DNA from: Cyanobacteriota bacterium | Lineage (GTDB): Bacteria; Cyanobacteriota; Cyanobacteriia; Thermostichales; Thermostichaceae | Assembly (NCBI GenBank): GCA_033764955.1 | Contig: JANRIL010000024.1 | Span: 153,621 to 217,620, forward strand | DNA: 64,000 bases | Direction: 5' to 3' | In this document: positions 10,680 through 64,000 of the stretch, piece by piece | How the letters are laid out: each line of letters starts with the position of its first letter | Position numbering within the stretch: position 1 is the first letter of the stretch | Notes under the pieces: model-generated | What the model was told of the DNA's origin: nothing | Database searches by the model: none | Seen by the model: only the letters and a program-made list of their open reading frames with translations | Made by a program: the position numbers and the translations under genes

Positions 10680-13247
10680 ATGGCAATCCGCAGTAGGAAA
10701 GATGCTTTATGGTTCCCTCCCGTTGGGTTGCTAAGGATCTTGTCCAGCCTAGGATTGCTGAGTTTAAGCTGGCTAATGTCGGGTTGTGGTGGAACCAGCG
10801 ACTCCACAGCATTGCCATTCCCCGACTCCAGCCTGACTATCCTAGTGGATCCCGACAACGGTCCCCTCAAAACCCTGCAAGAGGCCATCAGCGAAGCGGA
10901 TCGCCAGCAAAATGCCACCCCTAACCTGAATGTCTTGATTGAGATTGTCGGCTCCGGTTCAGAGTCTCTTACTTCCACCCTCAGCCTGGATGGGGGCAAC
11001 GGCACCAACGGCGGTAAAGTCACCGTGCAAACCACAGAGGGATCCGTTCCGTCCTATCAAATCCTGACCGGACTGGCGGACTTAATCATTCCTGCCGAAA
11101 CCCAGCTGAATGACCTGAGTGTCAGCCTCAATAATGGGGGGCAACTGCAGGTCACCGGAGGACAAATTCAAAACTCCAAAATTACGGTAGCTTCTCAACA
11201 ATCCCAAATTCGGGTATCGGGATCCCCATTGAGTGGGTTGTTGGACTTGGTGATTGATTGCCAGCAATTTGCCGATAGTTGTTTATCACTTACAACAGAT
11301 GCCACGTTGCAACGGATCGAGTTGACCCATAGCTCTCAGCAAACGGGCAGCATCGGCATCAAAGTAGAGGCAGGCAGCCGTCCCAACATTTTGGATAGTT
11401 TAGTGGGGATCGTGGGAGCCGCCAATCAAGTCGGGATCCAGTTTGAGAGCAACACAGGTGGACAATTGGAGAATGTCGAGGTGGATGGGGCAAAAGAGGC
11501 TGGCGAAAACCGGAGTACAGACAAGTGGCCAGAAGGGAGAGTCAATGTTACCCAACCCACAACCGGAATGGTCTTAGCCGCAAGCGATGCCAACCCCACG
11601 ATTCGCCAGAGTCGTTTTCGGGTGGGGCAGTTTTCCAGCAGCGCCGGCATCCGCATTTTGGCGGGTACTCAGCCAGGGCAAATTAGTGAGAATGACTTTG
11701 TTTCCTCCCGTCCGGGATCTGGCATCGGCATTCGGGTGGCAGCCGGGACACCCAGCCTAGTCGTGAATGAATACCTTAACAGCAATACCTTCGATGACAA
11801 TTTGCTGATTGCCGTGGGATCCAATGCCGCCTCAGCCACCCCTTCCCCCCAGCCTGGTGCCACCCCGGTTAGCGACCCCGAACCGACCCCCACTGGCCCT
11901 CAACCCAACCCAACCCCCGATCCTACGGTGATCACCACCCTTGCTGACGAGGGAGAGGGATCCCTGCGGCAGGCCATCCTAACGGCCAATGGGTTGGGGC
12001 AACCAGTTGAAATTACCTTTGCTGCCGAATTAGTGTCCACCCCCATTACCATTGCCCTCACCGAGAGTTTGCCTACCATTGAAACGGTTTTAACCCTTAC
12101 CTCACCCGCCGCCGATTTGGTGACGATTGATGGGCAAGGGGCAACGCGACTATTTGCCGTTCAGCCGGGAGCGTCCCTGACCCTCAACAACTTGACCCTA
12201 ACCCGTGGATTTCACCCTGAACGGGGGGGATCCCTGCTCAATGAGGGGGGAAGCCTGACCTTGCAGGGAGTCGTGGTGCGAGAAAGCATCGCTCCTGTGG
12301 GGGGAGGAATTTATAATGCGGCGGGGTTTCTCACCATCCTAGGGGGATCCCTGTCAGCCAACCAAGCCACCGGCGTCGAAGCGATGGATGAAGCGGGCGG
12401 TGGTGCTATCGCCAGCAGTGGGGGCGGCATCGTTACCCTCGTGGGCACGACCCTGAGCAACAATACTGCCGTCGGAGATGGCGGGGCGGTGATGGCTCTA
12501 GAAGGATTCTTAACCGTTGTCAGCACCTTCCTGACAGGAAACACCACCACTGGAGCAACGCCGCAGGGATCCGATGGCGGAGCGATTTTTAGCCGGGACA
12601 GCCTGGTCACTCTAGAAACAGCAGAAATCACCGACAATGTTGCCGCCGATGATGGCGGGGGATTGTGGGTTCTGGGGGGTTCCACCAATATCTTGAATAC
12701 GCGGATTGTCAATAACCAAGCCGGAGATGCCTATGGTGGCCTAGGGATCCTCAACAATCCGGCCTTCTCGATTACCACTACCACCCTCTCTGGTAACTCA
12801 TCGGGAACTGGTCTTCCTGCCAGCGACAGTCAGGAGGGCTTGATTGGGGGAGGGGCAGGTATTTTGGGCAGTACGGGAGCTATTCTCAACAGTCAGATTG
12901 ACAACAATAGCACCGTCAGATTGGGGGGCGGGTTATGGATTGGCGAGAGAGCCAACGTCACCCTGACCAACATTAGCTTGACGGCCAATACCGCAGAGTA
13001 TGGCGGTGGCGTGTTTATGAATAATAGTCGGCTCACAATAGCGGGGAGCAGTTTTGTCAATAACTCAGCGACTTTCGATGGAGGAGCCATTTTCGACAAT
13101 CGCGGAGTATTGCTGCCTACCGGGATCCCCTTGACAGGAGATGGCATGTTTTTGGGGATTGAGTTTATGGGCAATACCCCCAACAACCTAAATAGCAGTC
13201 CCTTGCCCCTACTGCCCACCCCATCCCCCACCCCCCCCCAAGAGTAA
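10680..13247 (+). CDS. Large surface lipoprotein with parallel beta-helix and GGAI/FxxN (polymorphic membrane protein-like) repeats
   Basis: Lipobox LMSGC; GSLRQAI..AN motif; repeated GGGAI/GGAI/GGGL with N..A; Pro-Thr linkers. Confidence 0.75.
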   Translation: MAIRSRKDALWFPPVGLLRILSSLGLLSLSWLMSGCGGTSDSTALPFPDSSLTILVDPDNGPLKTLQEAISEADRQQNATPNLNVLIEIVGSGSESLTSTLSLDGGNGTNGGKVTVQTTEGSVPSYQILTGLADLIIPAETQLNDLSVSLNNGGQLQVTGGQIQNSKITVASQQSQIRVSGSPLSGLLDLVIDCQQFADSCLSLTTDATLQRIELTHSSQQTGSIGIKVEAGSRPNILDSLVGIVGAANQVGIQFESNTGGQLENVEVDGAKEAGENRSTDKWPEGRVNVTQPTTGMVLAASDANPTIRQSRFRVGQFSSSAGIRILAGTQPGQISENDFVSSRPGSGIGIRVAAGTPSLVVNEYLNSNTFDDNLLIAVGSNAASATPSPQPGATPVSDPEPTPTGPQPNPTPDPTVITTLADEGEGSLRQAILTANGLGQPVEITFAAELVSTPITIALTESLPTIETVLTLTSPAADLVTIDGQGATRLFAVQPGASLTLNNLTLTRGFHPERGGSLLNEGGSLTLQGVVVRESIAPVGGGIYNAAGFLTILGGSLSANQATGVEAMDEAGGGAIASSGGGIVTLVGTTLSNNTAVGDGGAVMALEGFLTVVSTFLTGNTTTGATPQGSDGGAIFSRDSLVTLETAEITDNVAADDGGGLWVLGGSTNILNTRIVNNQAGDAYGGLGILNNPAFSITTTTLSGNSSGTGLPASDSQEGLIGGGAGILGSTGAILNSQIDNNSTVRLGGGLWIGERANVTLTNISLTANTAEYGGGVFMNNSRLTIAGSSFVNNSATFDGGAIFDNRGVLLPTGIPLTGDGMFLGIEFMGNTPNNLNSSPLPLLPTPSPTPPQE

Positions 13248-27567: not shown

Positions 27568-27740
27568 CGTTGTTCTAATTGCTCTAAGGGGATGGAGATA
27601 GATTTCAGTCGAGCAGACAGGATCCCAATCTCATGCCATTTGGTAGCGGCGGATCCGACTAACATCAACAGCAATCCAGAGGAGAGCAAACTGAGGAAGT
27701 CGCGCCAAAATCCAGGGTGGGATCCATTTCCGTAACTCAT
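27555..27740 (-). CDS. Small single-TM protein of the lysis-like module
   Basis: ATGA overlap with the GH108 stop codon; hydrophobic helix FLSLLSSGLLLMLVGSAA followed by a short coiled-coil-like tail. Confidence 0.5.
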   Translation of the reverse strand: MSYGNGSHPGFWRDFLSLLSSGLLLMLVGSAATKWHEIGILSARLKSISIPLEQLEQRCQP

Positions 27741-28270
27741 CGCGTAATCACCCCCATGAGCGCGTTGTCACGATTCAGCCAGCCTTGTAGGAAAACTCGT
27801 TGTGTGGGATTTTCTGTGACTCGTTGATGGCGGTATCGGATCCGAGCTTCCACAATGGCGATTGCGGTTTGGCGGGAGTTGTTTTTCTCAAAGGCAGCTT
27901 GAGTGATGGATCCCCAGATGCCATCCACCCCCACCTTGAGCACAGATTGCAGGAATTTGACGGATCCCATCACGCCAAAATTGACTGCTGTATCAAACTG
28001 AGCAATTGCCAGGGGCAAGATCATCTGAACACAACGAGCGGGAGTCCAGTAGTTTTCCCAATAGATCCACTTCACCTCTTGCGGCTGGATCCGTTTCACA
28101 TCTTGGGGAACCAGGTTCTTGCTTTTGCGCCAGTGATCATAGGTGGCCTGGGTGATGCCGAAGTTGGTGCGTCCACCTGGATCCGCAGGATGATCCACAA
28201 AGCCACCTTCCCAGCGTTGGGTGAAGGCCAAGGCTTTTTCAAAATTCTGAGTATTCCTAGCAGCGGTCAT
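27737..28270 (-). CDS. Glycoside hydrolase family 108 muramidase (endolysin-like)
   Basis: EGGFVDHPADPGGRTNFGIT, Y...YW, FDTAVNFG, VDGIWGSIT, FLQGWLNR. Confidence 0.92.
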   Translation of the reverse strand: MTAARNTQNFEKALAFTQRWEGGFVDHPADPGGRTNFGITQATYDHWRKSKNLVPQDVKRIQPQEVKWIYWENYWTPARCVQMILPLAIAQFDTAVNFGVMGSVKFLQSVLKVGVDGIWGSITQAAFEKNNSRQTAIAIVEARIRYRHQRVTENPTQRVFLQGWLNRDNALMGVITR

Positions 28271-29443: not shown

Positions 29444-29797
29444 TCATGAGACTATCAGGGAACTTGTTTCCAAAACCAGGCTATCTGAAATGATAAAAAT
29501 TGCCTGCTCAGATCCCCCCACCCGCAACACCTGGATCCCAGACTCCAATTTCTGCAGGATCCGCCATAATCTTGACCAGTAAGGATCCAATAACAACGGC
29601 TCAAAAAACTCTTCCCCAGATTGGACAATAACCGGATCCCCCTGCGCCATTCGAGCACACACTTTGCTCACCACCAACGGATAGGGAGCTAACTGCACAG
29701 GTTCATCTGCATCGGAGATGTAGCAGAGTTTCGGCACCAGTCGCCGCACCTGATCCTTGAGTTTGCTGCGCTTCGATTTGCGGTAGCGTACCTTCAT
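29444..29797 (-). CDS. Nuclease A inhibitor (NuiA)-like protein
   Basis: LCYISDADEP, EEFFEP, W..L...L......I.V.RVG..E..IFII, V.ET resemble NuiA-family motifs. Confidence 0.6.
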   Translation of the reverse strand: MKVRYRKSKRSKLKDQVRRLVPKLCYISDADEPVQLAPYPLVVSKVCARMAQGDPVIVQSGEEFFEPLLLDPYWSRLWRILQKLESGIQVLRVGGSEQAIFIISDSLVLETSSLIVS

Positions 29798-29800
29798 ACC

Positions 29801-30931
29801 TCACCAGGGTAATTCCTCAAATTCCAGACTTTCTTGATCCGATGCTTTTGAGGTCACACTCAGCAATCGTCTTTTGAGATCCGCCTCTTTTACCTTCAGA
29901 AGTTGGGCGGCTTGAGAGAGTGAAATCGGGGATGATTCCAGACTCTCTTTGACAATTTCTAAGACTGATGAGGGATAAGCATCGATCTTTTCAACATCAA
30001 AAATAGCGGGCACTTCAAACCACTGGGGATCCAGCTTCAATTGCACAGCCAAACTGCGGGGACTGCATTCCTTCCATTCTTCTCGTTGGGTAATCGAGAT
30101 CAGTCTTTCTTCCCACAATCGCATCAACATCGTGGCGTAACTGACTCGCATTCTTACTGCCAACAACATCACCCGAATTGGATCCAAGTGATGAAACACA
30201 AAGCATTCTTGTACTAGATATCTCAGAGCTTTTCCTGGTACTAAAAAGTGGGCGGCAAAAACGTTGGCAAAGCGTTCTTTTGGGTCGGATCCGTGACTAC
30301 TGACACTGGTAATCCCTTTGGCGGAATAGTGATAAAAGGCATGAGCTAATTCGTGAGCCAGAGTAAAAACTTGACGGCCTGGGGTGGTGTCGGAATTAAC
30401 CAGGATGCAACTGCCTAAGCGGGGATGATTGTAATAGGCTCCTGAGATTTGACTGGATCCCATCTGACGAAAACTACCTAATGGTGCTCGATAGACCAGT
30501 ACCCCAATACTGTCGAGAAACCCAGCCAGATCTGAAATGGCATCCAGTCCGAGATCGTAATGTGCCCGCACCTCAACCGCCAAAGTAGGAGCGCGGCGGA
30601 TGTCTTCTTCTAAGCCCCGATCTAATTTCTTGGGGGTTTTGAAAGTCTGGATCTCACGTCCTTGACTGGTGAGAAAATCTGCCCAGGCATCCAGAAAATC
30701 CAGCCAACCATCGATCTCGATCCGCACCTCACCGTTTTGCGGGATCCCGCGATAGAGCACTTCTCGCTCTTGATCTTCCGCCAGATCGATTTCCCCCAGT
30801 AGGTACGCCACAGGCACCTGATAAAACTTGGCCAGTTTCTGCAATGCACTGGCTTGAGGACGACGTTTGCCGTTTTCCCAAGTGGAGATCGTCTCGAGGG
30901 GAATCTTGATAGCTTTATCCGTATGAGACAA
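29801..30931 (-). CDS. XRE-HTH / ImmA-IrrE family metallopeptidase fusion (N-terminus apparently truncated)
   Basis: ETISTWENGKRRP..L.KLA.FY.V HTH; RQVFTLAHELAH (HExxH); ERFANVFAAHFLVP; in-frame stop just upstream and first HTH helix missing. Confidence 0.85.
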   Translation of the reverse strand: MSHTDKAIKIPLETISTWENGKRRPQASALQKLAKFYQVPVAYLLGEIDLAEDQEREVLYRGIPQNGEVRIEIDGWLDFLDAWADFLTSQGREIQTFKTPKKLDRGLEEDIRRAPTLAVEVRAHYDLGLDAISDLAGFLDSIGVLVYRAPLGSFRQMGSSQISGAYYNHPRLGSCILVNSDTTPGRQVFTLAHELAHAFYHYSAKGITSVSSHGSDPKERFANVFAAHFLVPGKALRYLVQECFVFHHLDPIRVMLLAVRMRVSYATMLMRLWEERLISITQREEWKECSPRSLAVQLKLDPQWFEVPAIFDVEKIDAYPSSVLEIVKESLESSPISLSQAAQLLKVKEADLKRRLLSVTSKASDQESLEFEELPW

Positions 30932-30983
30932 GTTATCCTAGAGCGGGAAAACACTTAAATCGATCCACAAGCATTGCAAGACC

Positions 30984-32418
30984 ATGGAATTGAATGATAT
31001 TCAAGCCAGGATCAATACATTGATGACAGCTTTTGTTACAGAGATAAAAGGATCTTCTGCGATGGGCAGAAATGACATTAATAAAGTTTCTGAACTTGTT
31101 TTGATTCCTATTTTCAAAGAAATATATGGCTATAGAAATTTGCAGAACTTGAATCATCAATACTCAATCAACTATCCTTCCATAGACCTAGGGGATGAAG
31201 TAAGTAAAGTTGCAATACAAGTCACGGCAACTCAAGATATAGAAAAGATTAAAGATACACTAAAAAAGTTTATCGAAAACAAACTAAATCAGAAATTCAA
31301 CAGATTAATTATATATATTCTTACCGAAAAACAGAGATCCTACTCTAGTAAATCAATAGAAAAGATAATCAATAGCACATTTGATTTTTCTCCGGAAAAT
31401 GACATTCTCGACTATCGAGATATCCTAAAAGAGGTTTCATCATTTCAAGTTGACAAAGCAAGAAAGATTAGAGAAATTCTTGAGTCAAACTTTAGCAGTT
31501 ACAGATTTAATGGCAATCAAGAACCTATTGATTTAGCTACTCAATCTATCTATCTAAATCTATTGGAACTAAAATTCCCTGAGAATATGTATTTAGCTGA
31601 AATTGCTCATAATATATCAACATCCACTAAGGATGCACCAAGAAAAAATAAAGCCCCCAGAGACATCGTAAAGATTTTACTTGAGGATTTGGGTTTAAAA
31701 TCTAGCTCGGATTGGGTTATCTCAGGAAATAAAATTATTACATTTAACGATCTCGAAAACAATTCAATTCCTTTATCTAATATTACTCGAAAAGATACAA
31801 TAAATATTGTTAATTCAATAAAATATTGCAGTGCTAGTATGGATAACGAGTCAATTTTTAAATCCCTATTAGATCGCTGTATGCAACAAAAGCTATATCA
31901 CCGTGGAGTTCAATGGCAAAACGAAGAAAAACTATTCATTTTCACTTCAATACAAAATCAGCCTAAACGTACTGAGAAATGGAAAGGAGAAAAGGAAAGT
32001 GTAAGAACAGTATATGAGCGCAAGATGAAAAAAAACAAGCCTGAGGAGATATTGTGTTATAAGCACCTAGGATTCAGAATTCAGTATTGACAGTAAGTGG
32101 TATTGCATAGTAAAACCCGATTGGTTCTTTAGCCATGATGGATATAAGAGGTCATACTATCATGCTCAATCAGTCCAATGGCTCAAAAAACAAGAAAATG
32201 ACACACAAGTCTTTAATCATCTAAGATTTATCGTGTATTTCCTCTCCAACGAGCCAGAGGCAAGTTTATTTGATATGAAGCGATCTTATCCATTCCTGTC
32301 TTTTGGAAATTTATTAAGCTTTGATTGTGCTCCAATTCTAAAGGATGAGGATTGGAATCCATCAGATCAACTTCAGCCAGATCAACTAGAGTCAGATCAG
32401 TTAACTATAGATTTATGA
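30984..32418 (+). pseudogene. SMEK-APAZ effector of a short Argonaute system, frameshifted near 32088
   Basis: N-terminal SMEK signature (DINKVSE..I.KEIY.Y.NL.NLN..NYPSIDLGD..AIQVT..KIKDTL.KF); APAZ-like region from IYLNLLEL to YKHLGFRIQY*; +1 frame continues IDSKWYCIVKPDWFFSHDG..KKQEND..V.NHL.F..YPFLSFG to the stop at 32418. Confidence 0.8.
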
Positions 32419-33839
32419 GATCACATTTTCTTCAGGAACCTTTTCTTGAGTTTGGCTGCGGGCAGCATATTTGTCCTAGGGCTGGAATCTCCGAATATAA
32501 GGTATATGATACAAGGTTTTCTGCAAGACGTGAGAAGATTTTGGTCGGAGCAATTGGAACAAGTCAGAATTTGACTGAATTTAGTTTATGGCTTGATAAA
32601 TGCTCAAAGGTTATACCAGGAAAATCTGAATCAAGACATAGTAACCTTTATCCTTCATTTTGTGGATTTAATTTGGAATCTGGCTATAAAGCAAGGTTTA
32701 TATTTAATGAGGAGATAACAAGGAAAATAAATAATTCAGACATAAAGAATTTGCTTAAAATTGAAAACTGGAATGATAGAGTAAATGAGACATCAGAATT
32801 ATACTACCAGCTTACTAAATTTCTAGCTCAAAATAGGTCTGTTGATGTTATTGTGTGTATTATCCCAGACGAATTATATAGTAAAATATCTCAAAAGGAA
32901 AAGACCCCTATCGAAGAATCAATTGACGAAGCTGCTTCTGTTGATATTTTAGAGAATAATTTTCGAAGACTTATTAAAGCAAAAAGCATGCATCTTGGTA
33001 AGCCTATACAGTTATTGCGTAGCTCATCATTGCAGTCTAATTCTACAATGCAACAGGATGATGCAACCAAGGCTTGGAACTTTTCCACTGCTTTATATTA
33101 TAAAGCTAATCAAACAGTTCCCTGGAAGCTAATAACAAATATCAATAGACCATCTATTTGTTTTGTAGGAATTAGTTTTTATCGTAGTCGCGACAGAAAA
33201 ATATTGCATACAAGTCTTGCCCAATTGTTTGATGAATTAGGCAATAGTGTAATTCTTAGAGGCACACCAGTAGCCATTGGCAAAGATGATCGTCAGCCAC
33301 ACTTGACAGCTTATCAAGCTCATGCACTACTAAAAGAATCACTATCTGAGTATGCGCTCGCTCTTGGTAACTTTCCCGCAAGGTTAGTTATTCATAAATC
33401 ATCAAAATTCAATGATCAAGAGATTGATGGTTTTAGAAGTGCTGCCTCAGAAGCGAGAGTCAATTCTATCGACTTTGTCTCCATCCTTGATACTGATATT
33501 CGACTATTTCGAGGGCAGACTTACCCACCGTACAGAGGTACTCTCATTGAGTTGGATTCTAAAACTAATTTGTTGTATACTAAAGGTTCAGTTAATTACT
33601 ATAAAACTTATACAGGGAAATACATACCACATCCATTAGAAATTAGGGTGGCTGATGCTGACGAGTCTCCTAAGGTAATATGTGAAGAGATTCTCGCACT
33701 AACAAAAATGAACTGGAATAATACACAGTTTGACGGTAGGCTTCCTATCACAATCCAGTGTTCTAGGAAAGTTGGTGAGATTATGAAATACTTGAGTGAA
33801 CATGATAATCCTCAAGTTCGTTATTGTTATTACATGTAG
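32415..33839 (+). CDS. ago: Short prokaryotic Argonaute (MID-PIWI only, catalytically inactive)
   Basis: 474 aa; EPFLEFG..PRAGI, FRRLIKAK..PIQL, QDDATKAWNF.TALYYKA..PWKL, CFVGISFY, RLVIHK, YRGT, LYTKG, EILALTKMNWN, LPITI, YYM C-terminus; ATGA overlap with the APAZ stop. Confidence 0.93.
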   Translation: MRSHFLQEPFLEFGCGQHICPRAGISEYKVYDTRFSARREKILVGAIGTSQNLTEFSLWLDKCSKVIPGKSESRHSNLYPSFCGFNLESGYKARFIFNEEITRKINNSDIKNLLKIENWNDRVNETSELYYQLTKFLAQNRSVDVIVCIIPDELYSKISQKEKTPIEESIDEAASVDILENNFRRLIKAKSMHLGKPIQLLRSSSLQSNSTMQQDDATKAWNFSTALYYKANQTVPWKLITNINRPSICFVGISFYRSRDRKILHTSLAQLFDELGNSVILRGTPVAIGKDDRQPHLTAYQAHALLKESLSEYALALGNFPARLVIHKSSKFNDQEIDGFRSAASEARVNSIDFVSILDTDIRLFRGQTYPPYRGTLIELDSKTNLLYTKGSVNYYKTYTGKYIPHPLEIRVADADESPKVICEEILALTKMNWNNTQFDGRLPITIQCSRKVGEIMKYLSEHDNPQVRYCYYM

Positions 33840-33924
33840 TTGAAGACTTGTTTTAAAGTTGCAAATTTAATTGTAAAAGAGCGAATTTATTACCTGACCC
33901 ACTTTGCCTTAGCCTAATGGTTGA

Positions 33925-35910
33925 ATGGCTGTTTATAAAAGGGATCCCCACCCTCTGCAAGAGCTACTGCAAACCCTGCGCGAGTCTTACACCCCAGAAC
34001 AAAAACAGCAGATCTGGTCAACCTTCTCACCTCAGTTACGCAGTCGGATCCATGCCCTGCTCAAAGACCAAGATCCTCGCCAAGCCATTACCCGCGAGAA
34101 GGGATCATTAGAGGTGGATCTTGAGAAGTTGGATCTCAACTACCACTCTCCCGTTCCTATCCCAGAATGGAAACCTACTCTGCAACTTAAGCCCTACGAG
34201 CAACTGAGTAAGCTCTATCTGGATATTGACGCTTCAGGACTGGATCCAGCCTATGACCGCGTTTTGATGGTAGGGTTCATGGATCATTTCGGTTCTGTAA
34301 CTCTGTTAACGGATCCGGATGAACGCCAAATCCTGATCCAAACCCTGGAATTTCTCAGATCTCATCCCCATGAATTGCTGATCGGTCACAACCTCTTCCA
34401 GTTCGATTTACCCTTCTTGATGACCCGCTGGGATTTGCATGGGATCCCTCATCTCTTTAGTTACAAAAAAGATCATCACGGACAGCAAATCACCCAAACC
34501 ATTACTGCCTCAAGCTTTCACAGCAAGCCGATCCAATTTCACCCCATTACCTGTTCAGGGATCCAGATCCTCGATACTTTCCACCAGATCTGTATCTGGG
34601 ATAAAAGTGCTGCCAAACTTGAAAGCTACAATCTCAAATCCTGTGTTCTCACTTTGGGATTACGGGATACTCAACGGCTGGATCTTTCCCCTGATCAGAT
34701 CCAAAACTGTTGGGCAAATGGAGATCTACAAACCCTCTCTCAATATCTACACTTTGATCTGGAAGACACCCAACGACTGGCAGATTTTCTCTTGCCTGTG
34801 GTCTATTACCAACTTGCAGTAGTCCCCCAGATCTCCTTCCAAGACTTAGCCGTAGCTTCTCCTGCTCTGAAAGCCCAACGGATCCATCAATCTCTCTTAC
34901 CTAACCTCAAGCCAGAGGCGGATCCACCCGTTCACTATGGTGGTGGAACAGTAGAGTGCATCACCCCTGGATTGCACCGCAATGTTGCCAAAATCGACAT
35001 CAGCTCCCTCTATCCCAGCATCATGCTCAGGTTTGGGATCTGTTCTCGCAAGGATCCAGAACATAAATTCTTGGGCGTGATGCAATACATGACTCAGGAA
35101 CGTCTGCACCTGAAACAATTAGCCAAAGAGGGAAATATCCAAGCTCATCACGAACAGAATGCGCTCAAGATCTTGATCAACGGATCCTATGGCTTTTTAG
35201 GCACAGGCGGTTACACTTTCAACGACTACGAAGCGGCAGCTCTAGTCACTGCCTATGGTCGAAAGATCCTGCAACAGATGAAAGAGGTAGTGGAAGAGAA
35301 CAACGGGATCCTGATTGAGTTAGACACTGATGGGATCTTCTTTTCTCATCCCCAACCTCAAGACATTGTTGAGAAAGTGCAGCACGCTTTACCCGATGGG
35401 ATCATGGCTGAATTGGAGCTATCAAGCTGTGGGATGTATGTCCCCAAGGCTAAGAGTTATGTGATCATTCATCCCAACGGCAAGACCACGATTAAGGGGA
35501 TCTTTCGCAAACGAAATCGCTATCCTCTGGAGCGGATCTTCCCCGTTGAGTTCCTGAAACGGTATTTTCTGGAATCAGAGGAAGTTGCCTTTGCTTATTA
35601 CCAAAAGGTGAGAGAGTCAATTCAACAGCGACGGATCTCTATCGAGGAGTTGACTATTACTCACAAGATTGGATCCGCTGAGAAACAACTCCTCAAATTG
35701 GGTAAACCTGGTGAAGTGGTCAGCTATTTTTATGTTGAGCAGAAACGGATCCATCCCAAAAGTCGGAAGCTATTGTCATCTGTCGCTGCAGAATCCACTA
35801 CTGGGGATTACTGGATCGATTGGTATCTGAACCGATTGGATCAGCAAGTCCAAGAAATGACAGGGATCCAGGTAAATGAAGAATCCCAGCTCCCGATAAG
35901 TCTTGTATAA
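33925..35910 (+). CDS. Family B DNA polymerase with 3'-5' exonuclease domain
   Basis: Exo motifs LDIDASGL, GHN..FDLPFL, YL.FD; polymerase motifs DISSLYPS, KILINGSYG, DTDG, K.Y, IKG. Confidence 0.9.
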   Translation: MAVYKRDPHPLQELLQTLRESYTPEQKQQIWSTFSPQLRSRIHALLKDQDPRQAITREKGSLEVDLEKLDLNYHSPVPIPEWKPTLQLKPYEQLSKLYLDIDASGLDPAYDRVLMVGFMDHFGSVTLLTDPDERQILIQTLEFLRSHPHELLIGHNLFQFDLPFLMTRWDLHGIPHLFSYKKDHHGQQITQTITASSFHSKPIQFHPITCSGIQILDTFHQICIWDKSAAKLESYNLKSCVLTLGLRDTQRLDLSPDQIQNCWANGDLQTLSQYLHFDLEDTQRLADFLLPVVYYQLAVVPQISFQDLAVASPALKAQRIHQSLLPNLKPEADPPVHYGGGTVECITPGLHRNVAKIDISSLYPSIMLRFGICSRKDPEHKFLGVMQYMTQERLHLKQLAKEGNIQAHHEQNALKILINGSYGFLGTGGYTFNDYEAAALVTAYGRKILQQMKEVVEENNGILIELDTDGIFFSHPQPQDIVEKVQHALPDGIMAELELSSCGMYVPKAKSYVIIHPNGKTTIKGIFRKRNRYPLERIFPVEFLKRYFLESEEVAFAYYQKVRESIQQRRISIEELTITHKIGSAEKQLLKLGKPGEVVSYFYVEQKRIHPKSRKLLSSVAAESTTGDYWIDWYLNRLDQQVQEMTGIQVNEESQLPISLV

Positions 35911-35936: not shown

Positions 35937-36179
35937 ATGATTACTCAAAAAGTCAGATTCTGGGGCAATTCGCTGGGGATCCGTATCCCTCAAGCTATCC
36001 TGCAGCAGATTGGTATCACAGAAGGATCTACGGTTTCTCTCTCCATCGAAGGCAATCGAGTCATTATCTCCCCTACCCGTCTCAAGTACACCCTGGAAGA
36101 ACTTCTGAAGGATGTGGATCCGGTTTCGCAGCACAATGAAGTGGAATGGGGAGATCCGGTAGGAGAAGAGCAGTGGTAA
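35937..36179 (+). CDS. mazE: AbrB/MazE-family antitoxin
   Basis: WGNSLGIRIP, YTLEELL, H.E.EWG.P.G.E.W C-terminus. Confidence 0.92.
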   Translation: MITQKVRFWGNSLGIRIPQAILQQIGITEGSTVSLSIEGNRVIISPTRLKYTLEELLKDVDPVSQHNEVEWGDPVGEEQW

Positions 36180-36517
36180 AAATTGATGGACAAGTTCCAG
36201 AACGAGGTGACATCATCCGCTTACAATTCAATCCGAGAATCGGCAGTGAGCAAGCAGGTTTTCGCCCCGCTATTGTGATTTCTCCATCACCTTATAACCG
36301 GATCTCAAAGCTGATTTTGGTTTGCCCGATTACCAGCCAGGAGAAAGGTTGGCCTTTTGAGGTGAAACTCCCACCTGAGATGCAAATTCAGGGAGTGGTT
36401 TTAGTAGACCAAATCCGCACGGTTGACTGTGCTGCCAGAGGATCTAGCTTTGTCGAGAAAGCGCCTGCTGAAGTATTAGATGAGATCTTAGCCAGACTAG
36501 AGCCCCTTGTAGGCTAA
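36173..36517 (+). CDS. mazF: MazF/PemK family endoribonuclease toxin
   Basis: P.RGDII.LQFNP..G.EQAG.RPAIVIS..YN, CPITSQ.KG.PFEV, GVVL.DQ; GTG at 36173 with AGGAG, overlapping the mazE stop. Confidence 0.92.
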   Translation: MVKIDGQVPERGDIIRLQFNPRIGSEQAGFRPAIVISPSPYNRISKLILVCPITSQEKGWPFEVKLPPEMQIQGVVLVDQIRTVDCAARGSSFVEKAPAEVLDEILARLEPLVG

Positions 36518-37602
36518 TCCTCTACACCATACAACTCCGGTAGTTCAACACGGCGAATACTGGATGCATAAAAATCGTAGAGGGTTTCTACTCGATGCCC
36601 TGCCATCTCTGCCATTGTGGTCGGATCCACCCCTGCTTCTAGAGCATGGGAGATCACGGTATGTCGAGTTTTGTACTGAGTTGTCAAGTGGGGTTGCCAT
36701 TCGATCCCAGCAGCATTCAAACAAGCCCGCCAACAGCGATTGACAAAATTATGGCTGTCAATAAATCCCCCTTTGGGTGCAGGAAAAACTAAAGCTTTGC
36801 AGTCTAACTTTTCTGGTTGACGATCCTTGAGTAATGCGACCAACGTTGGGTTCATCGGGAAAACCCGCTCTTCTTCCGTTTTGGTCGTCTTGACCCGAAC
36901 TTCTCCAGCATCACCTCGCCATAGAGAACGGTCAAACTGGATTTCCCGCCGATCAAAATCGATTTGCTCCCAGCTCAAAGCCACCGCTTCCCCAGTGCGG
37001 CAACCTGTCAGCAAGAGGAATTTTACGAAGTCGAAGTAGTGGCTGTAGTAACGATCCTGCTGAAGAAATTGCAGTATTGCTTTAACCTGCTGAGCAGAAT
37101 AAGCACGACGACTGCGGCGACGCGGCAGGGCAATATGGATCCCCCCGAAATGTTCAGGATCCAGCTTTTTGAGCGTCGCCACATAGCGCCGTAGACTGGC
37201 AGGCTTCAGCTCTTGCTTGGATCCTTTCTGTAACCAAGCCACCAGCTCCTCAGCCTCGACTGTGGAGCGGATAGGTTTATGCCACTGCCTAAGACGACTC
37301 AGCAAGGCGTTGTCAGCTCGATTGAAGTTTTTCGCTAATTGCTTTTCCAACAACGAGATCAACTCAATCCCTTCTACTTGTCGCTCCCGCTGCGGCTTGT
37401 AGGTCTTCAGCGTCGGATCCAGATGCCCACTGGCCATATCCAGTTCAATCTGAGTTGCTTTCCCAATCGCAGCCGTCCGATTTACTTTACTGTCGGGCAA
37501 TCCCAAAGCAAAACAGTAGCGTTTGCCCAGATGGGTGAACCGGATCCGTAAGCGGCCATTATCGGTTTCGATTTTGACAGATCCGTTGGGGGATGTGGCC
37601 AC
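36514..37602 (-). CDS. Tyrosine integrase with N-terminal arm-binding domain
   Basis: GRLRIRF..GKRY..LGL arm domain; TGCRTGE, KT, YKTRHT, AGH and catalytic Tyr (FYA); start uncertain (37602 to 37737). Confidence 0.9.
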   Translation of the reverse strand: MATSPNGSVKIETDNGRLRIRFTHLGKRYCFALGLPDSKVNRTAAIGKATQIELDMASGHLDPTLKTYKPQRERQVEGIELISLLEKQLAKNFNRADNALLSRLRQWHKPIRSTVEAEELVAWLQKGSKQELKPASLRRYVATLKKLDPEHFGGIHIALPRRRSRRAYSAQQVKAILQFLQQDRYYSHYFDFVKFLLLTGCRTGEAVALSWEQIDFDRREIQFDRSLWRGDAGEVRVKTTKTEEERVFPMNPTLVALLKDRQPEKLDCKALVFPAPKGGFIDSHNFVNRCWRACLNAAGIEWQPHLTTQYKTRHTVISHALEAGVDPTTMAEMAGHRVETLYDFYASSIRRVELPELYGVED

Positions 37603-37632
37603 AAGGGTAGATTTCTGCTGGTCTGCACCCTC

Positions 37633-37747
37633 AGTGGTAGAAAGTGGTAGGATTTCCGCTTCGTTCCTACCACTCGCCTCTTTTTCGTGTGAGATCCTTA
37701 CCCTGGGCACGTTATAGGCTGCAAAACTTCCTACCAAAATCCTACCA
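37633..37747. repeat. Five CTACCA/TGGTAG repeats (candidate integrase arm-type sites)
   Basis: AGTGGTAG at 37633 and 37643; CCTACCA at 37666, 37730 and 37741. Confidence 0.55.
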
Positions 37748-37857: not shown

Positions 37858-37864
37858 GAGAGGA

Positions 37865-37937
37865 AGCTGATGATCGGACTCGAACCGACGACCTGCTCAT
37901 TACGAGTGAGCTGCTCTACCAACTGAGCTACATCAGC
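37865..37937 (-). tRNA. trnT: tRNA-Thr (CGT)
   Basis: GCTGATG acceptor, GCTC-AGTTGGTA-GAGC D arm, GCTCA-CTCGTAA-TGAGC anticodon arm, GTCGG-TTCGAGT-CCGAT T arm; CCA not encoded. Confidence 0.97.
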
Positions 37938-38055
37938 CTATTGAGTTTGGCGAAACCTATCGTAGCTTTTCCCCTTGAGATTCTACAACTATCCGATTCA
38001 TCCAAGTTTTTTCTCTGAGACCGGGATCCCTATGTCACTCAGACCGACTTCTCCC

Positions 38056-56010: not shown

Positions 56011-58704
<2,694 letters not shown>

Positions 58705-62754: not shown

Positions 62755-64000
62755 ACTACCCGACGCTCATGCTAGGCATAGGGCGCGCGGGCTTTCAATA
62801 GCCCTGCATCATCCCTGTCCAAGGAACAGAAAAGACGCGAACCTTCAGGCTGGTTTACAGCAGCCCCCCATTTTGCAATATTGACCGCACCATTATAGTC
62901 AGCGTCACCATGCCAGCCACAGTTACCACACTTAAAACCCTTACCTTGTCTGTCTCCCAAATAGTTGCAAACATGGCAAGTCTTGCTGGTGTAGGCAGGT
63001 GGAATCAGAATCACTTGGACTCCATCTCGCCGTGCTTTGTAATCAATAAACTGGCGCAGTTGGTAAAAGCTCCAGCTATTGCTACGCCGCCTCTCTGTAC
63101 TACTTCTAGGCTGTTGGTTAGTGCGCTCTCTTATTCCCGTCAACTCTTCCAGAGCAACAGACTCTCCAGATTGCTTGGCTCTTTTGACGATACGATGCGA
63201 GACGGTGTGATTGACCCAAGCTGCAAATCTCCGCTCTCTACCAGACAGCCGTTGCAAGATTTGACGGCATCTACGCCGACTAGATCTTGTGCCCTTACTG
63301 GCCCTTTTCTGGAGCGACCTTCTCAGCTTGGCGTGATTTTCTCTCACGCGGTTGATGTTTTGGTTGGCGTGTTTTTCCCCTTCAGAAGTAACCGCAATAT
63401 CGGTTCTACCCAAATCCACTCCCAAAACATTTGGATTTACCAGAGGGTCAGGAGTTTCTTGTTCCCAACAGATTTGCAGATAGTAGTCTCCATTCGTTCT
63501 TTTGACCAAGGTGGCTCCAGTAGGCTTAGAGCCTTTGAGCATCCCTCGTTGGTAGTTGCCAATGTCCAAAGGCATTCTTTCTCTCCCCCCAATCAGGGTA
63601 AGGCTCACACTCCAATCCTTCTCAAAGAAGGAAAAAATTCGAGCGTCGTATCCGGCACTGGTAGCCTTGAATGCCTTAACGGGACGATTTTTCTGTTTGG
63701 CAGTTTTACGGTTGGCTGCGACACGCCGACATACCTGTTGAGCAAGGTTGCTCGACAGGTTAAAGCGGTTGCGAACTTCGTAATAGACCAGGCTTTGCAA
63801 TTTCACCGAGTTCATGACCTTGGCTGGCGTATTCTGGTTTACCCAGTTACACGCTTCCGCAAACGAGTGCAAAGTGACCTCAAGTTTTTGAGCTTGTGTC
63901 TCGCTAGGCTTGAGTTTGCAGGATATAGTCAGGACTTGATTCATAGCCCCATTCTACTTCATGAGAATCTGTGGTGATGCCTAGAGACTTATTGCTCGTC
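62751..64000 (-). mobile_element. IS200/IS605-family element carrying tnpB (left end not resolved)
   Basis: tnpB gene; right-end hairpin and terminal GGGTAGTTTAC ending at 62751; no tnpA within the window. Confidence 0.75.
62772..63944 (-). CDS. tnpB: RNA-guided endonuclease TnpB
   Basis: RuvC I GVDLG, RuvC II ALEEL, WSFYQL..I.YKA, P.YTSK.CHVC..CGNC zinc finger, RuvC III DAD.NGA.NI. Confidence 0.94.
   Translation of the reverse strand: MNQVLTISCKLKPSETQAQKLEVTLHSFAEACNWVNQNTPAKVMNSVKLQSLVYYEVRNRFNLSSNLAQQVCRRVAANRKTAKQKNRPVKAFKATSAGYDARIFSFFEKDWSVSLTLIGGRERMPLDIGNYQRGMLKGSKPTGATLVKRTNGDYYLQICWEQETPDPLVNPNVLGVDLGRTDIAVTSEGEKHANQNINRVRENHAKLRRSLQKRASKGTRSSRRRCRQILQRLSGRERRFAAWVNHTVSHRIVKRAKQSGESVALEELTGIRERTNQQPRSSTERRRSNSWSFYQLRQFIDYKARRDGVQVILIPPAYTSKTCHVCNYLGDRQGKGFKCGNCGWHGDADYNGAVNIAKWGAAVNQPEGSRLFCSLDRDDAGLLKARAPYA

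Follow-up and report, generated by a model that had tools for sequence, protein, structure and literature searches.

The interval 30984-33839 on the plus strand of the DNA analysed here (the window, a stretch of 64,000 nucleotides from a cyanobacterial contig) holds a gene for an effector protein with an N-terminal SMEK (Mrr-like) domain and a C-terminal APAZ region, interrupted by a frameshift, and directly downstream of it a gene for a short prokaryotic Argonaute (pAgo). The initial annotation of the interval had described two co-oriented genes which overlap at an ATGA stop/start. The overlap at 32415-32418 and the second gene are as described, the latter encoding 474 amino acids between an ATG at 32415 and a stop at 33837-33839 and containing the motifs GISFY, VIHKSS and FRRLIKAK that had been quoted for it, but the first gene is not a single frame from 30984 to 32418: the open reading frame (ORF) list gives three open frames on the plus strand of the interval rather than two, with a stop past codon 368 of the effector gene and the remainder of the gene in the +1 frame. 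In the three-frame translation the open stretch of the +1 frame extends from 32071 as far as the TGA at 32416-32418, which is the effector stop that the pAgo start codon overlaps, and the ORF list places the earliest ATG, GTG or TTG within the +1-frame piece at the GTG at 32233. The motifs quoted for the first gene (IYLNLL, KWYCIVKPDWFFSHDG, YPFLSFG, IDLGD and IQVT) are all found in it, but KWYCIVKPDWFFSHDG (the motif beginning KWYC) and YPFLSFG are encoded by the +1-frame piece, frame 0 having stopped at 32088-32090, a circumstance that the annotation acknowledged solely by speaking of a "frame-corrected" protein and a "repaired" pair. A scan of 30700-34100 for promoters and terminators returned a number of sites not above that obtained with shuffled sequences.

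The two effector pieces can be assigned to one Argonaute-associated gene because the PADLOC model PDLC02399 (Aga_REase-PNTD1-PNTD2, 463 positions) matches the 368-amino acid piece over positions 1-365 (E 6.6e-117) and continues at positions 368-459 in the +1-frame piece (E 3.9e-27); as profile matches, these and the PADLOC match of the pAgo described below are far above chance level. The N-terminal SMEK signature seen in the initial annotation corresponds to the Pfam family SMEK_N (PF21941) at amino acids 9-151 (E 1.1e-44), and a Pfam scan at E up to 0.1 gave no family besides SMEK_N for the 368-amino acid piece. The homologues of the effector are mostly 470-500 amino acids long, the best identity being 49-51%, and a family alignment of 23 members (A1) was used both to identify invariant columns and as a profile for comparison with sequences in the Protein Data Bank (PDB). 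The residues D31, N33, E37, D68, D71, Q79, T81 and K88 are invariant across the 23 sequences and present here, and E37, D68, D71, Q79, T81 and K88 are candidates for the active site, the role of each residue being proposed from its conservation. PDB 26bh_D, which is the Mrr domain of the Mrr-APAZ pAgo system of Kordia jejudonensis, matches the single effector protein at E 1.3e-23, with the motifs D-I-N...E, IDL.D and Q.T in common, and the N-terminal part of the A1 profile at E 2.1e-44.

The C-terminal two-thirds of the effector can be identified as APAZ, as had been claimed from motifs, because A1 positions 230-478 match the APAZ parts of DREN, DUF4365 and HNH effectors. Positions 235-477 match the DREN-APAZ chain 9jsb_D (E 2.3e-25), positions 230-478 match the APAZ parts of the DUF4365 proteins 9qbp_A, 9qbl_A and 9qbq_A, and the profile also matches the APAZ part of the HNH effector 9om4_A (E 8.9e-9). 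The initial annotation had named the possibility that the N-terminal domain is an ordinary DUF4365/DREN member, and this does not hold: no such N-terminal domain was found, since Pfam gave SMEK_N alone and the DUF4365/DREN chains in the PDB match A1 over the APAZ part only. The anatomy that had been proposed, that is, a putatively inactive short pAgo together with an effector composed of an N-terminal SMEK domain (Mrr-like, of PD-(D/E)xK type) and a C-terminal APAZ region, is borne out.

The pAgo matches the PADLOC model pAgo_I PDLC02376 end to end (positions 1-455 of 455, E 9.9e-179), and solved short pAgos of 471-485 amino acids match it over nearly the full length (9qbp_B, E 2.2e-77; 9jsb_A, E 1.1e-74; 9om4_B, E 1.2e-61), while the comparisons with 8qlo_B and 8ifk_B give E values of ~1e-34 to 1e-35; a Pfam scan of the protein returned nothing. 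As judged by these alignments, the 474-amino acid protein comprises MID and PIWI domains only. In NbaAgo the residues R183, K187, K240, N181, F182, Q224 and N232 hold the guide 5' phosphate and the first bases (PMC12205087; this and the other papers are cited here from the portions of their text that were available). The counterparts of all of these residues are identical in the window pAgo in the alignment, while the base-pocket residues W159 and W201 of NbaAgo are not conserved. The reading of FRRLIKAK as part of the MID pocket agrees with its alignment to F182-R183...K187 of NbaAgo, and the pocket is predicted to be able to bind the 5' end of a guide. In the PIWI domain, GISFY is identical to the corresponding residues of NbaAgo (VGISFYR) and VIHKSS aligns with ILKTSR (within FILKTSRF), equivalent motifs being found in other solved short pAgos. 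Short pAgos such as NbaAgo are described as being without the catalytic DEDX tetrad (PMC12205087), and the tetrad of the window pAgo is putatively replaced as well, by homology to pAgos that are called inactive in the literature.

Intact counterparts of the gene pair exist elsewhere, and the search for them that the initial annotation had proposed was made by scanning species-representative genomes with the family alignment. This yielded 395 related stretches, and the locus counts given in the present work refer to the best 80 of the 395. Sorted by script, the 80 loci comprise 41 full-length SMEK-APAZ loci, 33 with SMEK only, 5 in which APAZ is joined to another N-terminus, and 1 cut by a contig end. 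The C-terminal piece is present in 40/41 full-length loci, all 40 of which read it in one frame with the N-terminal piece, while the sequence of the remaining locus stops before reaching it. A pAgo lies directly downstream in 39/41, the remaining two stopping at a contig end; these pAgos are 48-66% identical to that of the window, and 33 of the 39 pairs share the 4-nt ATGA overlap. In a quick tree of pAgos with 44 rows, the window pAgo falls inside a clade of 26 rows (SH-aLRT 100), all but four of which are SMEK-associated, and which spans Cyanobacteriota, Chloroflexota, Acidobacteriota and other phyla.

The position and extent of the break in the effector gene can be read from the alignment of the window with 13 homologues, in which the window has ...GFRIQY, a stop, and then (I)DSKWY... 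in the +1 frame, while the homologues have ...AFRTQYK.F..RWY.... The codon for Y368 and the codon for the serine that follows (32092-32094 in the window) lie 12 nt apart in 40/40 relatives and 4 nt apart here, a deficit of 8 nt near 32087/32088, at a non-repetitive site where TAT is followed by TGAC. A 7-nt tandem duplication (ATTCAGA/ATTCAGT) was considered as the cause of the frameshift and was ruled out, since RIQY in frame 0 is the RTQY of the family and frame 0 is valid through Y368. Both sides of the break are well preserved: the 368-amino acid piece retains 70/75 invariant columns, the +1-frame piece retains 16/16 columns invariant in the 13 homologues and has no further stop over ~109 codons, and the pAgo retains 87 of the 89 columns that are invariant in 43 relatives, compared with 0-6 invariant pAgo columns broken by intact relatives in an equivalent leave-one-out count. 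Because the remaining coding sequence is undecayed, the break either arose recently or is not real. In metagenome contigs, the 30-mer just upstream of the break had 0 matches, and the 20-mer just downstream had a single matching locus (L084), which has only those 20 bases in common with the window and represents a chance match.

Table 1. Features of the interrupted cassette and of the element that surrounds it (positions in the window).
Feature	Coordinates	Strand	Evidence or remark
SMEK(Mrr-like)-APAZ effector gene, 5' piece	30984..32090	+	ATG 30984, 368 codons in frame 0, TGA 32088-32090
SMEK_N domain, amino acids 9-151	31008..31436	+	Pfam PF21941, E 1.1e-44
Frameshift junction TAT TGA	32085..32090	+	Last in-frame residue Y368; reading resumes at GAC 32089 in the +1 frame
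Effector gene 3' piece, APAZ C-terminus	32089..32418	+	~109 codons, +1 frame, TGA 32416-32418
Short pAgo, MID-PIWI, intact	32415..33839	+	474 amino acids, ATG 32415, stop 33837-33839
Low-GC two-gene cassette	30935..33925 (borders approximate)		Composition profile; comparison with genome G006
HTH-Peptidase_M78 (RmrA-like) regulator	29801..30931	-	PADLOC RmrA, best E 7e-28
PolB-like fragment	33925..35910	+	661-amino acid ORF, residues 901-1556 of the 1571-amino acid G006 replicase; 70% identity over 656 amino acids
MazE/MazF-like toxin-antitoxin pair	35937..36517	+	Pfam MazE_antitoxin E 1.2e-11, PemK_toxin E 3.9e-27
Tyrosine integrase beside tRNA	36517..37737	-	Pfam Phage_integrase, Arm-DNA-bind_2; PHROG 1 integrase E 5.5e-38
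tRNA-Thr(CGT)	37862..37938	-	ARAGORN

The cassette came horizontally into an integrative element at tRNA-Thr, since the GC content is 31-38% over 31000-34000, compared with 48-50% on both sides and ~53% for the genome, and the pAgo is absent from 22/22 other genomes of the same family (present in 0/19 of the high-quality genomes). In a DNA search of the same-family genomes, none of the matches listed covers 30842-33966. The gene content of the window is cyanobacterial (Psb27, GUN4, Mg-protoporphyrin methyltransferase). The tRNA-Thr(CGT) gene is the likely integration site of the island; an att repeat was not found by a repeat search, by matching the 3' end of the tRNA with as many as 3 mismatches allowed, or by short blastn.

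The element that received the cassette is decayed, because the place of the cassette is taken, in a related element of one relative (genome G006), by the 5' end of the regulator gene and ~900 replicase codons. The order in the G006 element is regulator, 211-amino acid ORF and 1571-amino acid replicase, and the cassette occupies the place of the regulator 5' end, the whole of the 211-amino acid ORF and the first ~900 replicase codons. The G006 replicase is intact (L083 7345-12060, G006:C20) and has the order PriCT_2-DUF3987-PolB, the primase-helicase part of which is gone in the window. The regulator lacks ~15 N-terminal residues: in the alignment with the G006 protein (56% identity) its residues 6-376 pair with residues 21-391, its Pfam HTH_3 match begins at profile position 17, and an in-frame stop precedes its TTG start by 3 codons. 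The island also holds an HNH endonuclease and a GH108 endolysin.

Several neighbouring features were observed alongside these. In the regulator region (29447-30931, minus strand) a 117-amino acid ORF with no family match lies 3 nt downstream of the regulator on the same strand, while in G006 the homologous regulator is instead followed by a low-GC gene for a DUF900 hydrolase; this may represent an arrangement in which the regulator is combined with changing partners, in the manner of a RosmerTA-like pair. The GH108 endolysin region (27740-28270, minus strand) has ~77% identical copies on contigs C25 and C14 of the same genome, and copies in relatives, which suggests that there are several related prophage or island remnants. 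Farther away, a BrxC/BrxD-like ATPase gene lies next to the GUN4 gene at 57526-58704 on the minus strand (Pfam E 2.1e-28, PADLOC BrxD E 1.9e-24), with no other BREX genes seen around it in the window; an 855-amino acid ORF at 10680-13244 on the plus strand matches none of the Pfam families at E up to 1e-5; and a TnpB-like ORF (Cas12f1-like TNB domain, OrfB_IS605) occupies the window end at 62775-63944 on the minus strand.

Two groups among the 80 scanned loci depart from the SMEK-APAZ architecture. In five cyanobacterial loci (L042, L081, L043, L045 and L048) an APAZ protein of ~430 amino acids has a non-SMEK N-terminus and is directly followed by a pAgo which is 56-62% identical to that of the window; examples are L042 3620-4900, on plasmid2 of Nostoc carneum NIES-2107, and L081 3656-4981. 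A Pfam scan of L081 and L042 identified the N-terminus as EAD8 (Effector-associated domain 8, PF19961), at E 5.9e-27 in L081 and, under the cut-off used by Pfam, at E 9.7e-5 in L042. Because the pAgos of the four complete loci nest within the SMEK-associated cyanobacterial clade of the quick tree, the EAD8-type loci suggest that the nuclease has been replaced by an adaptor-type domain; a literature search turned up no paper that pairs an effector-associated domain with Argonaute. The second group consists of the 33 loci which have a SMEK_N domain 47-58% identical to that of the window and no APAZ, many of them heading ORFs that are 1,200-1,550 amino acids long, in hosts that include Coleofasciculus, Rivularia and Poribacteria. 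In the three of these that were scanned, L018 (3974-8569), L033 (3998-8362) and L049 (3989-8512), NTPase domains of STAND type (NACHT, AAA_16, NPHP3_N) come after SMEK_N, and in L018 and L033 TPR repeats come next; SMEK thus also serves as the effector head of STAND-type proteins.

The manner in which an intact member of this type would operate can be outlined from its relatives. The pAgo and the APAZ part would form a heterodimer, as has been reported for KjAgo, the pAgo of the Kordia system, and as is seen in structures of DREN and HNH relatives; the MID pocket would take up a 5'-phosphorylated small RNA guide, for which the residues are conserved here; pairing of the guide with invader DNA would drive oligomerisation, as shown for the DREN-APAZ system SPARDA and the HNH-APAZ system SPARHA; and oligomerisation would activate the N-terminal Mrr-like nuclease, the collateral DNA degradation by which would lead to plasmid loss or abortive infection. 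Filament activation has been reported for the DREN and HNH relatives, and SPARHA is described as a filament-activated collateral nuclease (PMC12738770). In the copy under study, the 8-nt deletion at ~32088 would end the effector past residue 368, with the loss of the ~110 last APAZ residues (~40% of APAZ), including the most conserved motif, W..PxWFFSxDGY. Owing to the loss of these residues the nuclease is probably uncoupled from the pAgo and the system off, and a functional complex would not be expected, because the effector ends at residue 368 and the +1-frame piece has no start codon before 32233.

We consider it likely that the locus is a SMEK-APAZ short-pAgo cassette of known type, of which this copy is frameshifted and probably inactive, acquired horizontally and lying in a decayed element. 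A number of points weigh against this. The comparison of PIWI motifs covers short pAgos only, and in vivo evidence of defence by a SMEK-type system was not encountered in the available parts of the literature. The activation mechanism outlined above is the most likely one for the SMEK type, and it is borrowed from the DREN and HNH systems; we likewise infer, from the sequence, that the truncated effector has probably lost its function. The source genome is a draft assembly of 3.8 Mb in 48 contigs which is 89% complete, and the scans of metagenome contigs found no near-identical contig that could back the frameshift. Finally, the combination of a conserved out-of-frame piece and an intact pAgo would fit an assembly artefact as well as it fits a recent mutation. 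If the frameshift were an artefact of assembly or sequencing, then the SMEK-APAZ/pAgo system in the organism would be whole and functional, and of the known type, and the draft or metagenome-derived appearance of the genome would be in keeping with this, as would the well-preserved state of the downstream piece and of the pAgo. We nevertheless regard such an artefact as unlikely. The 8-nt gap at a non-repetitive site is not a homopolymer slip, no other split gene apart from the fragments of the island was noticed among the 55 window ORFs in a non-systematic Pfam scan, and both neighbours of the cassette are damaged too, so that the island is decaying in any case. Since the gap is atypical of homopolymer error and the neighbouring genes are also damaged, a real mutation is favoured, and we believe that the frameshift is probably genuine.

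The break might instead be bypassed or put to use, either through low-frequency +1 frameshifting at UAU-UGA-C, which would throttle a toxic effector, or through cooperation of the truncated SMEK-APAZ protein with the pAgo. The site here ends in UGA-C, as does the classical +1 site of prfB with its stop context, and it is followed by a fully conserved downstream frame. This explanation is nonetheless very improbable, because 40/40 relatives read straight through the position and are three codons longer there, which indicates a deletion scar rather than a conserved signal; moreover, tRNA-Tyr on UAU would be unable to re-pair on AUU, the sole AGGA lies ~14 nt upstream, off the prfB spacing, and with no start codon in the +1 frame before the GTG at 32233 the conserved motif is not separately translatable. 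The initial annotation had proposed yet another interpretation, in which SMEK is a novel effector and the locus a SPARDA-like system that is new and uncharacterised. The N-terminal domain does differ from DUF4365/DREN, and the literature, in the parts available, describes detailed study of SMEK-type systems as lacking. The proposal of a new type cannot be sustained, however, and we hold it to be highly improbable: PADLOC contains full-length models, the type is catalogued in a preprint which counted 175 SMEK proteins among APAZ proteins (bioRxiv 10.1101/2023.06.08.544223), the Mrr (SMEK) domain of the Kordia system is in the PDB as 26bh, the study of KjAgo is cited in several papers, and 395 related stretches occur in species-representative genomes. 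By its sequence relationships, the locus type is the known clade-S2B short-pAgo system with a SMEK/Mrr-APAZ effector, and the type is not new.

The locus accordingly matters little as a discovery: the type is catalogued, a defence database has a model for it, its effector domain has been solved, and its biochemistry has been the subject of a first study. As a frameshifted copy of a known type, it cleanly exemplifies a pAgo cassette of low GC content that was acquired a short time ago, with a single lesion in the toxic-effector gene and an untouched sensor gene, which is the outcome to be expected from selection against a costly abortive-infection system after transfer, and it shows that integrative elements linked to tRNA genes carry such cassettes in cyanobacteria. 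Intact relatives, for example those of Pseudanabaena sp. SR411 and Phormidesmis priestleyi BC1401, would be better material for in vivo work on the subtype. If the break were in fact bypassed or put to use, the locus would represent a naturally attenuated short-pAgo system; in the case of +1 frameshifting, the toxic Mrr-type effector would be made in trace amounts only.

Among the characterized systems, the closest to the locus is the SMEK(Mrr)-APAZ/KjAgo pair of Kordia jejudonensis, which was studied biochemically by Kim et al. 2020, as cited in PMC10810196 and PMC12205087, and which is described there as a heterodimer guided by RNA against DNA targets, with collateral nuclease activity that is weak; it has been named SPARMA (bioRxiv 10.1101/2025.04.08.647717). 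The two systems have the same effector family, SMEK_N, with the matches to 26bh_D given above, and in both of them the APAZ fusion is directly followed by a short pAgo. They differ in that the window effector is frameshifted past codon 368, and in that the window host is a cyanobacterium in which the cassette lies within a decayed integrative element.

The likeness to SPARDA (NbaSPARDA, 9JSB; the DUF4365 complexes 9qbp and 9qbl) extends over the full length of the pAgo (E 1e-74 to 2e-77), the homologous APAZ (9jsb_D, E 2.3e-25) and the conserved MID residues at the guide 5' end, and both systems belong to clade S2B and have a nuclease effector. The effector of SPARDA is, however, DREN/DUF4365 while that of the window is the Mrr-like SMEK, the PD-(D/E)xK topology of which is described as different from that of DREN (bioRxiv 10.1101/2023.06.08.544223), and W159 and W201 of NbaAgo are not conserved in the window pAgo. 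SPARHA (HNH-APAZ, PDB 9om4) is related through its pAgo (E 1.2e-61) and through a weakly homologous APAZ (E 8.9e-9), and differs in having an HNH nuclease as its effector in place of SMEK. SPARTA and SPARSA (TIR- or SIR2-APAZ) have in common with the window system a module of short pAgo and APAZ sensor, with pAgo matches (8qlo_B, 8ifk_B) at ~E 1e-34 to 1e-35, but in them the effector is an NADase and the clades are S2A and S1, whereas the system in the window is of the nuclease type and belongs to S2B.

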